8,979 nucleotides of DNA from a virus (taxonomy: Duplodnaviria; Heunggongvirae; Uroviricota; Caudoviricetes), in the IMG/VR virus record IMGVR_UViG_2585427789_000025. One strand, written 5' to 3'. The translations under genes and the position numbers were made by a program. The notes under the pieces were generated by a model. That model had not been told where the DNA came from. It worked only from the letters and a program-made list of their open reading frames with translations, and did not search any database. Positions 125 to 5,636 of this stretch are shown in pieces. Every line of letters starts with the position of its first letter. The first letter of the stretch is position 1.

Positions 125-532
125 ATGGAATTTAAAGATTTACCAAAAGAAATCCAGATAATTGCTGCAACGACACTCGGTGATAGTCTGGTGAAAATTG
201 ACCCGGCATACACCAAAAAAGAAACCATCGATAATATGGTTCGTAATGTGCGCAATGCTTTTTCTGGGCTATATGGTTCTGATAATCAAAAGCAGGAAAG
301 CGATGTTAATAAACGGGTAATTTCTGTTTGCGTGAATGGCCATGTTCTTTCATCAATCAAAACAGAAACGGCGACAGTCTTCGATTGCCTTTGCATTGTA
401 CAGAGCCTTGTTGATGCCCTGTTTCGTTCAGTGAATTTAGAAAATGATGCAAATCTGCGAGGGCGCACAATAGCACATCCATATGCACATACTTTAGGCT
501 CTGTGGATATCAAAGATCCCACAAATCTTTAA
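125..532 (+). CDS. Hypothetical protein, 135 aa
   Basis: ATG at 125 with GAGG about 8 nt upstream. The translation has non-repetitive, protein-like composition. No motif recognised. Confidence 0.5.
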   Translation: MEFKDLPKEIQIIAATTLGDSLVKIDPAYTKKETIDNMVRNVRNAFSGLYGSDNQKQESDVNKRVISVCVNGHVLSSIKTETATVFDCLCIVQSLVDALFRSVNLENDANLRGRTIAHPYAHTLGSVDIKDPTNL

Positions 533-743
533 TGAAATAGTTAACGCGAATTGTACTTGCTCTTTCAGTTGCTTTCAGAATACGCGTTGAAACTGCTGGC
601 GGTAATTTGGTATTCCATTTATTAAAATCATGCCCGGAAAAGTACTCTTCGAAAATACTTTTAACTGCAGACTCGCCTATTGAAATGCTGCTTACCATGC
701 GATTTTGATAAAGGCATTTAGCAATAAGAGTTGATTTTAACAT
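510..743 (-). CDS. Hypothetical small protein, 77 aa, convergent with and overlapping the 3' end of the 125-532 gene by 23 bp
   Basis: Minus-strand ATG at 743 is preceded by a consensus AGGAGG Shine-Dalgarno (reverse complement of 749-754, spacing 5 nt). No competing + strand ORF across 533-743. No motif recognised. Confidence 0.55.
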   Translation of the reverse strand: MLKSTLIAKCLYQNRMVSSISIGESAVKSIFEEYFSGHDFNKWNTKLPPAVSTRILKATERASTIRVNYFIKDLWDL

Positions 744-1052
744 TCACCCTCCTGAGGGTTGGTAATTAAGGAGTTCTCCACGGGTGAACATCCGGCACTG
801 ACAGTTTACTGAAAGGATATTTCTCTGAAAAGTCAGAGCATAACGCGAAAGCGCACGGCGAGGTTGCTGGTTCATAGATAGCCTGTCGTTAAATTTTCGT
901 CGACCGTGCGCTTCCGGTTGTGGCACTCCGCGAAATGGCGCGGCGGTAAGTATGGCGGGGTTATTCCTTCCCCGTTGAGGACACCGGGTTGTCAGGTTGA
1001 CCATACGCCTGAGTGACAACTCCGCTACAACAACCCATGTTGATTACCTTTT

Positions 1053-1096
1053 GGCGGGTATTCGTTTTGTTTTTCCCGTGATACCCGCCCCTTTTA
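1053..1096 (+). terminator. Terminator-like hairpin (9-bp stem GGCGGGTAT/ATACCCGCC, 19-nt loop) followed by CCTTTT
   Basis: Stem arms at 1053-1061 and 1081-1089 are perfectly complementary, with T-run 1092-1095 on the + strand. The loop is long for an intrinsic terminator, so a protein-binding palindrome or a leaky tL-type terminator are alternatives. Confidence 0.35.
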
Positions 1097-1100
1097 AAGT

Positions 1101-1254
1101 GAATTTTGTGATGCGGTGAATGCGGCTCAGCGCACGCGGAACAGTTAAAACAAGCGGTCTTTTACTTGCGTAACAGACATCAACTAACAATCCGGCGTTA
1201 ATGGTTTACTGGTTAACGTCACCTGGAGGCACCAGGCGCCGCATCACAAAATTC
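1101..1254. repeat. Perfect 16-bp inverted repeat (GAATTTTGTGATGCGG ... CCGCATCACAAAATTC) enclosing 122 bp, immediately upstream of the operon RBS
   Basis: 1101-1116 is the exact reverse complement of 1239-1254. The interior contains further short stems, such as CGTTAA / TTAACG around 1196-1218. The RBS GAGGA (1261-1265) and ATG 1273 follow directly. Confidence 0.6.
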
Positions 1255-1272
1255 ATTGTTGAGGACGCGATA

Positions 1273-1461
1273 ATGGAAACGTTATTACCAAACGTTAATA
1301 CGTCTGAAGGTTGTTTTGAAATTGGTGTCACTATCAGTAACCCAGTATTTACTGAAGATGCCATTAACAAGAGAAAACAAGAACGGGAGCTATTAAATAA
1401 AATATGCATTGTTTCAATGCTGGCCCGTTTACGCCTGATGCAAAAAGGATGCTGGCAATGA
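1273..1461 (+). CDS. Small hypothetical protein, 62 aa
   Basis: ATG at 1273 with GAGGA at 1261-1265 (spacing 7). The track ORF 1201-1461 is an upstream extension of the same frame with no RBS. The stop overlaps the next start in an ATGA motif (1458-1461). Confidence 0.5.
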   Translation: METLLPNVNTSEGCFEIGVTISNPVFTEDAINKRKQERELLNKICIVSMLARLRLMQKGCWQ

Positions 1462-2766: not shown

Positions 2767-3111
2767 ATGAAGGAAGAGATCTGGGCGCTGTTGATGTTCT
2801 CTCGTCGTCAGTACCAGAAACTGATGCAGTGGAAACGGGTATCTGATATCGCAAAAACTGAATGCGCGGTGGAAGTTGAACCATCTGTAGAGCGTGAGGG
2901 GCCGTTCTATTTCCTCTTCGCCGATAAGGATGGCGAAAAATACGGTCGCGCAAACAAACTTTCTGGTCTGGATAAGGCGCTGGCTGCTGGGGCTACTGAA
3001 ATCACGAAAGAAGAATATTTTGCCCGCAAAAATGGTACATACTCGGGTTTACCGCAAAATGTTGGTGCCTCTGAAGACCGCACAGCCAGAGCCGGTAAAA
3101 GTTACCGCTGA
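2767..3111 (+). CDS. Hypothetical protein, about 114 aa (start at ATG 2767; alternative GTG 2758)
   Basis: Frame 1 ORF begins 21 nt after the stop of the upstream gene, with AAGGG about 10 nt upstream of ATG 2767. Composition is protein-like. Its 3' end overlaps the 5' region of the downstream exonuclease frame. Confidence 0.55.
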
Positions 3112-4207
3112 CGAAGTAAACAAAATTATGCAGGCAGCCAATATCAGCCAGCCTGACGCCGATAAGTTGCTTGCTGCATCACGTGGTGAATTTGTTGAAG
3201 GGATTAGTGACCCGAATGATCCGAAATGGGTTAAGGGGATCCAGACCCGCGATTCTGTGAACCAGAACCAGCATGAATCGGAACGGAACTACCAGAAAGC
3301 GGAACAAAACAGCCCAAATGCGTTACAAAACGAGCCAGAAACGAAACAGCCTGAACCAGTGGTGCAACAGGAAGTGGAAAAAGTCTGCACCGCCTGCGGT
3401 CAGAGCGGTGGTGGCAACTGCCCTGATTGTGGTGCGGTGATGGGCGACGCAACATACCAGGAAACATTCGATGACGAGTATCAGGTTGAAGTTCAGGAAG
3501 ATGATTCGGAGGAAATGGAAGGCGCTGAACATCCACACAAGGAGAATGCTGGCGGCGCTCAGGATCACGCTAGCGATAGTGAAACTGGCGAGACGGCAGA
3601 TCACCCAATTAAGGTGAACGGTCATCACGAAATCACATCCACCAGCAGGACGTGTGACCATCTAATGATCGACCTTGAAACCATGGGAAAAAATCCTGAT
3701 GCCCCGATCATCTCAATAGGTGCAATATTTTTCGATCCGCAAACCGGAGATATGGGACCGGAATTTAGTAAGACTATCGATCTGGAAACTGCTGGCGGAG
3801 TCATTGATCGGGACACCATTAAATGGTGGCTTAAGCAATCACGCGAAGCGCAATCTGCCATTATGACCGATGAAATCCCGTTAGATGATGCACTGTTACA
3901 ATTGCGGGAATTTATCGACGAAAACTCCGGTGAATTTTTTGTTCAGGTCTGGGGAAATGGAGCCAACTTCGACAACACGATTTTGCGCCGTTCATACGAA
4001 CGGCAGGGGATCCCCTGCCCGTGGCGTTACTACAACGATCGCGATGTACGCACAATCGTTGAGCTGGGGAAAGCCATAGACTTCGATGCCAGAACGGCTA
4101 TTCCATTCGAAGGTGAGCGCCATAATGCACTTGATGACGCTCGTTACCAGGCAAAATACGTTTCAGCTATCTGGCAAAAACTGATCCCGAGTCAGGCTGA
4201 TTTTTAA
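3059..4207 (+). CDS. DEDDh-type 3'-5' exonuclease (DnaQ-like fold) with a disordered acidic linker and a CxxC-x7-CxxC zinc-ribbon; start codon uncertain
   Basis: The C-terminal roughly 190 aa carries the three exonuclease motifs in order: MIDLETMG (Exo I, D-x-E), [13 protein letters not shown] (Exo II) and [10 protein letters not shown] (Exo III, H-x4-D). Upstream lie a Q/E/P-rich low-complexity stretch and [16 protein letters not shown]. The track ORF starts at 2894, but its first 55 codons are Arg/Ser/Trp-rich junk lying over the frame-1 gene. No in-frame ATG (3032, 3059, 3128) has a convincing RBS. Confidence 0.7.
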
Positions 4208-4265: not shown

Positions 4266-4469
4266 ATGAGCAGCTTATTTTTAACCGAAGATGAATTGCT
4301 AATATTAACGGGCTGCAAATATGCAAGCCACCAGCGAAAATGGTTAATGGAAAACGGGCTTCCGTTCTATACCAATCGTAGTGGCAAACCGATTGTCAGC
4401 CGGGATCTATTTACCTGCAATAAAACTTTACCACCACGCGAGGTAGAGCCGAATTTTGGTGCGATCTGA
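4266..4469 (+). CDS. Excisionase-like small DNA-binding protein (resembles the DUF4224-type proteins found next to phage integrases), 67 aa
   Basis: Sits immediately upstream of the integrase, and its stop overlaps the integrase start (TGATG at 4467-4471). The family call is from memory of the conserved N-terminal pattern, not from a search. Confidence 0.6.
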   Translation: MSSLFLTEDELLILTGCKYASHQRKWLMENGLPFYTNRSGKPIVSRDLFTCNKTLPPREVEPNFGAI

Positions 4470-5494
4470 TGGGAAGACGAAGGAAAAATCCTGAACACGA
4501 AAAATTACCTCCAAATGTATACCCAAATAAATATAGTTATGTATGGAAACCAACATCCAGAGAATCTGTCACACTAACCGCCATCAAGGATGGTTTAGCT
4601 GCTTTATGGAAAAAGTATGAGGAAACTGTAAATAATCGCGATCGTGCAATGACATTCGGTCGCTTGTGGGAAAAATTCCTCGCCAGCGCCTATTACAGTG
4701 ACCTTAGTCCAAGAACACAAAAAGATTATCTGCAACATCAAAAAAAGTTGCTTGCCGTATTCGGTAAGGTACCAGCGGATTCCATAAAACCAGAACACAT
4801 CCGTCGATACATGGACAAAAGAGGGGAGCAGAGTAAAACGCAAGCCAACCATGAAAAAAGCAGTATGTCCCGTGTTTACAGTTGGGGGTATGAGCGAGGG
4901 TACGTGAAGGCTAACCCATGTGCAGGTGTAAGTAAATTCAAGGCCAAAAACCGCGAACGATATGTAACCGACAAAGAATACCAGGCAGTATTAAGCGTTG
5001 CACCTCTTCCTGTTTTTATCGCAATGGAAATTGCCTATCTGTGTGCAGCGAGGGTTTCCGATGTGTTATCGCTGAAATGGGAACAGATTGGAAACGACGG
5101 GATATTCATCCAGCAAGGGAAAACCGGAAAAAAACAGATAAAAGCATGGAGTCCACGATTACAGGCAGCGATCGAAAAAGCAAAACAGTTGCCAAAATCT
5201 GCCTATGTGATCAGCAATCAATACGGCAACCGATATATGTACAAAGGCTTTAACGAAATGTGGGTAGATGCAAGAAATCGTGCTGGAAAAATTTCAGGTA
5301 TTTTAACCGACTTCACCTTTCATGATCTGAAGGCGAAAGGAATTTCAGACTATGAAGGAAGCAGCCGGGATAAGCAACTTTTCTCTGGTCACAAAACCGA
5401 AGGGCAAGTGCTAATCTATGACAGGAAGGTTAAAGTTTCACCAACACTTGATGTCCCGTTACCTGAAAATATTCCAAGAAAATATTCCAAGTAA
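4469..5494 (+). CDS. int: Lambda-family tyrosine integrase, 341 aa
   Basis: N-terminus MGRRRKNPEHEKLPPNVY resembles the lambda Int arm-binding N-terminus (MGRRR...LPPN.Y). Catalytic-domain blocks align by eye to lambda Int: AARVSDVLSLKWEQI (Arg I), GKTGKK (Lys), FHDLKAKGISDYE (His with Lys in the Arg II position), SGHK (His) and LIYDR (Tyr). The gene ends 52 bp from the 3' end of serU. Confidence 0.9.
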   Translation: MGRRRKNPEHEKLPPNVYPNKYSYVWKPTSRESVTLTAIKDGLAALWKKYEETVNNRDRAMTFGRLWEKFLASAYYSDLSPRTQKDYLQHQKKLLAVFGKVPADSIKPEHIRRYMDKRGEQSKTQANHEKSSMSRVYSWGYERGYVKANPCAGVSKFKAKNRERYVTDKEYQAVLSVAPLPVFIAMEIAYLCAARVSDVLSLKWEQIGNDGIFIQQGKTGKKQIKAWSPRLQAAIEKAKQLPKSAYVISNQYGNRYMYKGFNEMWVDARNRAGKISGILTDFTFHDLKAKGISDYEGSSRDKQLFSGHKTEGQVLIYDRKVKVSPTLDVPLPENIPRKYSK

Positions 5495-5546: not shown

Positions 5547-5636
5547 TGGCGGAGAGAGGGGGATTTGAACCCCCGGTGGAGTTGCCCCCACTCCGGTTTT
5601 CGAGACCGGTCCGTTCAGCCGCTCCGGCATCTCTCC
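5547..5636 (-). tRNA. serU: tRNA-Ser (anticodon CGA), 90 nt with long variable arm
   Basis: Reverse complement of 5547-5636 reads GGAGAGATGCCGGAGCGGCTGAACGGACCGGTCTCGAAAACCGG...GGGGGTTCAAATCCCCCTCTCTCCGCCA. It has an acceptor stem, anticodon loop CTCGAAA (anticodon CGA), a class II variable arm and a 3' CCA. Confidence 0.9.

Follow-up and report, generated by a model that had tools for sequence, protein, structure and literature searches.

RNase III sites are well known in the early polycistronic transcripts of phages, such as the N-leader and sib sites of lambda and sites R0.3-R18.5 of T7. They are intercistronic helices in antiterminated operons, where cleavage splits the RNAs apart and gives the following cistron a new 5′ leader, and they take the form of simple hairpins with internal loops. 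The closest described system is the dicBF operon of the Qin prophage of Escherichia coli K-12, in which RNase III makes a 72-nt DicF (Faubladier 1990, as cited in PMC5069750 and PMC9438474); as far as these citing accounts go, the 3′ end of this species depends on RNase III and lies 19 nt past the 53-nt DicF. The 5′ end of a 190-nt DicF precursor is also RNase III dependent in K-12 (Ragunathan 2023), and that study described the upstream RNase III site alone and did not detect the long dicB-containing species. In addition, Table S1 of Gordon 2017 lists a peak of rnc−/WT coverage at 1649470, assigned to 'dicF-dicB' and marked as a known site. The KilS paper (PMC8175672) does not present the spacer before kilR in the Rac prophage as a structured element. 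STnc100 is a gammaproteobacterial small-RNA family with no published target or established function (PMC9029176). A canonical STnc100 copy lies 75 nt 3′ of stx2B in phage 933W (PMC12370729), the Hfq-bound EcOnc27 (EcOnc27/sRNA103, downstream of stx2B) overlaps STnc100 (PMC12711010), and PasD, an abundant sRNA in RIL-seq, has been judged structurally homologous to it (bioRxiv 10.64898/2026.05.13.724894).

The DNA analyzed here (the window) is a stretch of 8,979 nucleotides. From its downstream and upstream gene content, the locus is assigned to a lambdoid prophage at serU and, within it, to the PL-type early-left operon, equivalent to the Qin dicBF operon. The first gene 3′ of a long inverted repeat is dicB, followed, according to Pfam, by genes for a DUF1482 protein, an exonuclease, a DUF4224 (Xis-like) protein and a tyrosine integrase (4469-5494). 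Beyond the integrase lie tRNA-Ser (5550-5636, minus strand), mtfA, tRNA-Asn and yeeJ. In a genome that carries identical DNA, the upstream genes are those for a CI/LexA-type repressor, ydfA, ydfB and ydfC. No sigma-70-like promoter for the element or for dicB was found on either strand of 700-1500, which is consistent with co-transcription of the element within the operon. An Rfam match to 'Plastid-psbl-rps4' at 5550-5601 (38.6 bits versus a cut-off of 68) was the antisense of tRNA-Ser and was discarded as a false positive. Two differences from related prophages were seen in the surroundings. The exonuclease region consists of two ORFs (1742-2746 and 2894-4207), where the equivalent in NZ_CP068155 is one exonuclease CDS of 2472 nt, and it may represent a disrupted gene or a different allele. 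Furthermore, an insert at 125-743, between ydfC and the DicF-precursor region, is absent from K-12 Qin and holds two ORFs with no Pfam match (125-532, plus strand, 135 aa; 510-743, minus strand, 77 aa). The features used below are the following.

846-916, plus strand: upstream hairpin with arms 846-858 and 904-916 (13 nt, extended in the fold), from repeat search and fold; it lies outside the finding itself.
1053-1095, plus strand: hairpin of the rho-independent-terminator type with U-tract (stem 1053-1061/1081-1089, U-tract 1092-1095), from the fold.
1098-1118, plus strand: 5′ arm of helix P1 (perfect core 1100-1116), from repeat search, fold and covariation.
1119-1137, plus strand: AAU junction and then hairpin P2, from RNAalifold on 34 diverse members.
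1138-1193, plus strand: variable central region, with a local hairpin at 1157-1178 in the window, from fold and alignments.
1194-1220, plus strand: hairpin P4 (1194-1202/1212-1220), from fold and pair counts.
1222-1236, plus strand: hairpin P5 (CCUGG AGGCA CCAGG), from fold, RNAalifold and pair counts.
1237-1257, plus strand: 3′ arm of helix P1 (perfect core 1239-1255), from repeat search, fold and covariation.
1261-1265, plus strand: Shine-Dalgarno sequence GAGGA of dicB, from sequence, 4 nt past the end of P1.
1273-1461, plus strand: dicB (62 aa), from Pfam PF05358 DicB (E = 3e-40) and the RefSeq annotation of identical DNA, NZ_CP068155.

An earlier note, made from the sequence alone, had reported a perfect 16-bp inverted repeat placed after a hairpin with a T-tract and before the ribosome-binding site of the first small gene. 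Both statements held. The repeat search of the window returned 1100-1116 and 1239-1255, an inverted repeat of 17 nt, one base more per side, that is 100% complementary and has 122 nt between the arms; a DNA search found the 16-mer twice in the whole window, namely in the two arms. The hairpin and U-tract at 1053-1095 precede the repeat, and GAGGA and the ATG at 1273 follow it. When the window was shuffled 1000 times with dinucleotides preserved and perfect inverted repeats with loops of up to 300 nt were sought, the longest was 14 nt (in 7 of 1000 shuffles) and 17 nt was never reached (0/1000). Chance as the origin of the repeat is thus excluded. As RNA, P1 extends to 21 bp (1098-1118 with 1237-1257), since the pairs G1099·U1256, A1098-U1257, U1117·G1238 and G1118-C1237 are added to the core; 17 of the 21 pairs are perfect Watson-Crick pairs, and the helix makes about two turns. 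The region 1096-1260 (165 nt) folded on the plus strand with a minimum free energy of −65.3 kcal/mol (z = −6.1), and the opposite strand with −61 kcal/mol. A coding explanation was considered and rejected: ORF 1201-1461 extends dicB in frame from an ATG that lies inside P4 and is ATT in K-12, and conservation was lacking for ORFs 997-1119 (plus strand) and 1044-1190 (minus strand).

The arms of the repeat pair to close a multi-hairpin RNA domain, some 160 nt long, that lies between the terminator at the DicF position and the dicB ribosome-binding site. Inside P1, the junction AAU is invariant together with the GGUG before it, giving GGUGAAU at 1115-1121. In P2, 1122-1126 pairs with 1132, 1133 and 1135-1137 around the loop UCAGC, leaving A1134 bulged. 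The central region 1138-1193 varies among relatives in both length and sequence. P5 belongs to the invariant motif UCACCNGGAGGCACCNGG, found here within 1219-1236, directly abuts the 3′ arm of P1 and stacks on it without a linker. P1, P2, P4 and P5 are all present in the window, and the P1 core GGUG/CACC, the AAU junction, P2 with its C-UNNGC-G loop, P4 and the P5 motif are those of STnc100. This makes the architecture different from that of the lambda and T7 sites, as the helix of the window closes a conserved multi-hairpin domain, and that domain exists elsewhere without the long helix.

Rfam at gathering and permissive thresholds gave the window a sub-threshold STnc100 match only and no DicF, put-like or riboswitch family. 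The STnc100 model (RF02076) scored 29.9 bits (E = 0.0017, model positions 21-154), below the gathering cut-off of 47 bits. However, with a covariance-type model (R1) built only from 62 canonical, threshold-passing members and with P2 in the RNAalifold register, the window scored 60.5 bits (E ~1e-13) at 1107-1248 over the full model length (positions 1-125), K-12 Qin scored 61.1 bits and Rac 57.9 bits. On these scores and the shared motifs, the domain is classed as a divergent STnc100 member. Rfam draws P2 as CCCCU/AGGGG, whereas the RNAalifold register has the bulged A and a C-G pair that closes the UNNGC loop. The canonical-only model with the latter register doubles the Rfam score of the window, and the Rfam threshold misses the dicB-type subfamily in most E. 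coli genomes, likely because Rfam's P2 register differs and penalizes G-C/C-G flips. Compared with canonical STnc100, three P2 pairs of the window are flipped from C-G to G-C, P1 has 21 bp instead of 4-11 bp, and the copy lies in the early-left rather than the late operon. The 3′ terminal hairpin and U-run of the Rfam model (about positions 170-206), the mark of a free-standing sRNA end, are also lacking (positions 155-206 unmatched), and the Shine-Dalgarno sequence and start of dicB follow P1 instead.

The K-12 homologue, which directly follows DicF (76.7 bits), likewise scored below the Rfam STnc100 threshold (34.4 bits). The Qin dicF-dicB spacer is 86% identical to the window, and its RNase III site 3′ of dicF is orthologous in position, lying between the terminator of the small RNA and the ribosome-binding site of dicB. 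Its arms are the same except for two wobble-compatible changes, one from C-G to U·G and the other from G-C to G·U, with which pairing survives on plus-strand RNA only. The window differs from Qin in that its hairpin upstream of the repeat is another allele, unrecognized by the Rfam DicF model, and in that its prophage lies at serU. The Rac KilS-kilR spacer of K-12 (L249 1260-1503, minus strand) shows the same order of a small RNA with terminator, a long-stem STnc100-like element and a gene for an FtsZ inhibitor, with an identical 5′ arm; its 3′ arm differs in having one bulged nucleotide and a U·G pair, and the downstream gene is kilR. A 241-nt region was matched in 4605 of 5426 complete E. 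coli genomes, in a median of two places per genome. To survey the family more widely, a pattern of the two invariant motifs was scanned over one genome per species and a dicB-type P2 pattern over viral contigs. Together, the two scans yielded 154 distinct elements across Enterobacterales, and most of the canonical ones exceed Rfam's STnc100 threshold. P1 of canonical members has 4-11 bp (median 7, none with at least 17), and the phage P7/D6 relatives keep the core with a stem of about 7 bp; dicB-type members have longer stems, with a median of 22 bp and at least 17 bp in 54 of the 65. The genes downstream are unrelated (dicB, kilR, terB/tciA of the P7/D6 ban operon, a KdgM-like porin), and some elements are directly followed by terminator hairpins (e.g., L021, L020 and L038). 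In phage D6 (L004), two extra weak matches to the STnc100-core model, 881-986 and 3676-3796 (34.6 and 30.8 bits), share a region with the strong copy that precedes tciA. Tandem STnc100-type arrays interleaved with tRNA genes were also observed (L071 3717-5512, L060 6350-7858, L108 281-1331 and L032 3539-4648); in Citrobacter braakii (L071), one element ends 8 nt 5′ of a tRNA gene. These arrays suggest co-processing from polycistronic transcripts.

Covariation pointed to a selected RNA structure. RNAalifold on 34 diverse members returned three helices, namely P2, P5 and the core of P1, whose 8 bp include many compensatory pairs. The P2 evidence comes from this alignment and not from pair counts over the 35 distinct long-stem variants; here, three pairs of P2 switch orientation, C-G against G-C, in 15-19 of the 34 sequences. 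In the 35 variants, P1 is 96.3% paired with both-side changes in 11 of its 21 pairs, so that its substitutions are compensatory, and pairing drops to 33-45% when the 3′ partner is slid by 1-3 columns. P4 is 94.9% paired with double changes in four pairs, and the same pairs reach 73.7% on the opposite strand. The middle pair of P5 is U-A in 25 sequences and G-C in 10. In the shuffle control, the observed values on four of five measures were matched by none of 500 shuffles. Furthermore, G·U was far more frequent than A·C, with 61 versus 10 cells in P1 and 71 versus 4 in P4. This excess indicates that the selected molecule is the plus-strand RNA. The opposite-strand RNA was considered and rejected, as it folds nearly as well but loses the G·U pairs.

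We consider it probable (about 0.7) that P1 is an RNase III processing site that separates an upstream small RNA from the dicB mRNA. Its 21 continuous base pairs provide the double-stranded length of about 20 bp of an RNase III site. In K-12, dicF is annotated at L001 3883-3935, and adding the 19 nt given for the 72-nt species by the citing papers leads to about 3954, which is the ninth base of the 5′ arm 3946-3961 and corresponds to about 1109 of the window. This placement is arithmetic from the annotated 53-nt gene, and an error of a few nucleotides would still leave the end inside the 21-bp arm. Counting 190 nt back from the dicF end at L001 3935 similarly gives about L001 3746, or window ~911, which falls in the 3′ arm of hairpin 846-916, the homologue of the K-12 site for the precursor's 5′ end. 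That the same arithmetic puts the end of the 190-nt species in an independent hairpin arm supports it. The Gordon peak at 1649470 corresponds to L001 3971 and lies inside the element, 8 nt inside the arm, with a signal of only 26 reads versus 0.

From these positions, the 5′ arm would be cut after about 1109, and the geometry of RNase III, with its 2-nt 3′ overhang, would place the partner cut at 1247/1248. We infer these window coordinates of the cuts, and what they would mean for the expression of dicB, as follows. The prophage lineage would have lengthened P1 to about two helical turns, which would let RNase III act on it. When transcription passes the terminator of the small RNA, the enzyme would cut both arms of the resulting RNA (~1109/1110 and 1247/1248) and generate three products. 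The first would be a longer alternative 3′ end of the upstream small RNA, the counterpart of the 72-nt DicF of K-12; the second, an excised core of about 138 nt; and the third, a dicB mRNA with a 5′-monophosphate leader of about 25 nt, uncoupled from the upstream RNA. The predicted excised core, 1110-1247, folds stably (−48.8 kcal/mol, z = −4.0). Cleavage by RNase III is not, however, the function of the conserved core, because most STnc100-class closing helices are too short. A post-cleavage hairpin over the dicB AUG (1252-1261/1268-1277) was also tried and rejected, having a z of only −2.2 and a natural U-to-C variant that breaks its pairing.

The hairpin at 1053-1095, which would form the end of the upstream small RNA, occupies the DicF/KilS slot directly 5′ of the repeat and folds with −16.8 kcal/mol (z = −3.8). 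The Rfam DicF model (RF00039) had no match in 740-1300 at E values up to 10. By alignment, the region 1036-1097 is a third allele of the slot, with loop and seed regions unlike those of DicF and KilS. This allele was found in 150 of 5426 complete E. coli genomes and annotated in none of them; a so far undescribed small RNA of the prophage, with targets of its own, may be encoded there.

It is unlikely, though compatible with RNase III processing, that the element is or releases an Hfq-dependent trans-acting sRNA, the stem stabilizing it or setting its ends. The canonical STnc100 family is annotated as an sRNA, EcOnc27 and PasD link it to Hfq binding and to abundant sRNAs, several relatives (the three loci named above) carry a terminator hairpin directly after the element, and the excised core would remain stable. 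The copy in the window, however, has no promoter-like site, and the terminator or U-tail normally needed by Hfq-class sRNAs is replaced by the dicB ribosome-binding site. The conserved nucleotides are mostly buried in helices and junctions, the published record holds no STnc100 target, and interior coverage is lower in rnc+ than in rnc− cells, which argues against accumulation. Of the suggestion in the earlier note that the unit is a structured small RNA, the homology of its interior to STnc100 therefore stands, and the absence of a promoter-like site and of its own terminator speaks against the rest.

A cis-acting translational gate, or a ligand- or protein-sensing dicB leader, in which the extended P1 and the terminator tail would mask the Shine-Dalgarno sequence and refolding rather than cleavage would control expression, is improbable. 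Its layout would be riboswitch-like, a multi-helix junction closed by P1 just 5′ of the ribosome-binding site, and in folds of 1036-1330 and 1090-1330 the Shine-Dalgarno bases 1261-1264 were at least 90% paired with C1090-U1093. From the sequence, GGUGA (1115-1119) could alternatively pair with the invariant UCACC (1219-1223). A perfect 21-bp P1 is nevertheless far too stable for switching, and the Shine-Dalgarno pairing comprises 4 bp only, is weaker in K-12, is absent from kilR-type copies and shows no covariation. Moreover, a sensor specific to one gene would not be expected to stand, as this core does, before tRNAs, terminators and unrelated genes. Folds of the read-through RNA gave the Shine-Dalgarno sequence an unpaired probability of at most 0.1, and these models leave slight room for cleavage to unmask the dicB ribosome-binding site. 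The earlier note also proposed a long-range RNA stem as a gate for translation or processing of the operon. The processing half of this is supported by a conserved, covarying plus-strand helix and by the 72-nt DicF end, which, on the accounts cited, falls by its coordinates in the 5′ arm; gating of translation is only weakly suggested.

A DNA-level element, be it a miniature inverted-repeat mobile element as also proposed earlier, a cruciform, a palindrome bound by protein, or a conserved linker for the exchange of lambdoid modules, can be dismissed as highly improbable: although the terminal repeat is perfect, the element is multi-copy in E. coli, copies before dicB, kilR or a 282-aa ORF have the 5′ arm in common, and the 3′ flank diverges from mid-3′ arm onward as at a mosaic joint, the long-stem copies are not dispersed but always follow a DicF/KilS-type terminator or take the equivalent prophage position, the flanks AAAGT and ATTGT form no target-site duplication, relatives such as those of P7/D6 keep the core with short stems, the interior hairpins covary as well, and compensatory arm substitutions with G·U far above A·C are explained only by selection on plus-strand RNA.

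Helix P1 is very probably the orthologue of the known RNase III site in K-12 dicBF, and thus largely known biology. In the literature searched, we did not find the dicF-dicB and kilS-kilR spacers described as STnc100-class domains, nor their distinguishing trait, a closing helix grown long enough for RNase III to cut. The finding links an old and rarely discussed RNase III site 3′ of DicF with STnc100, which is among the most abundant Rfam small-RNA families in enterobacteria; the two were treated separately in that literature. If this link holds, cleavage of an STnc100-type domain would set the 5′ end of the mRNAs for DicB and KilR, both toxic inhibitors of cell division, and STnc100 would become open to experiments in E. 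coli K-12. Beyond this, it is conceivable, though we hold it doubtful, that STnc100-class domains are portable RNA 'punctuation' of temperate-phage operons rather than ordinary trans-acting small RNAs, or that the excised core is itself functional as a decoy or protein-binding RNA. As punctuation, self-folding modules between cistrons, small RNAs and tRNA genes may direct endonucleolytic separation of the flanking RNAs, with RNase III acting on long P1 helices such as those before dicB and kilR, and other enzymes on short ones; the interleaving with tRNA genes, seen in sequence, suggests such general modules. If true, the first STnc100-class members for which the processing enzyme is identified would be the spacers of dicF-dicB and kilS-kilR.
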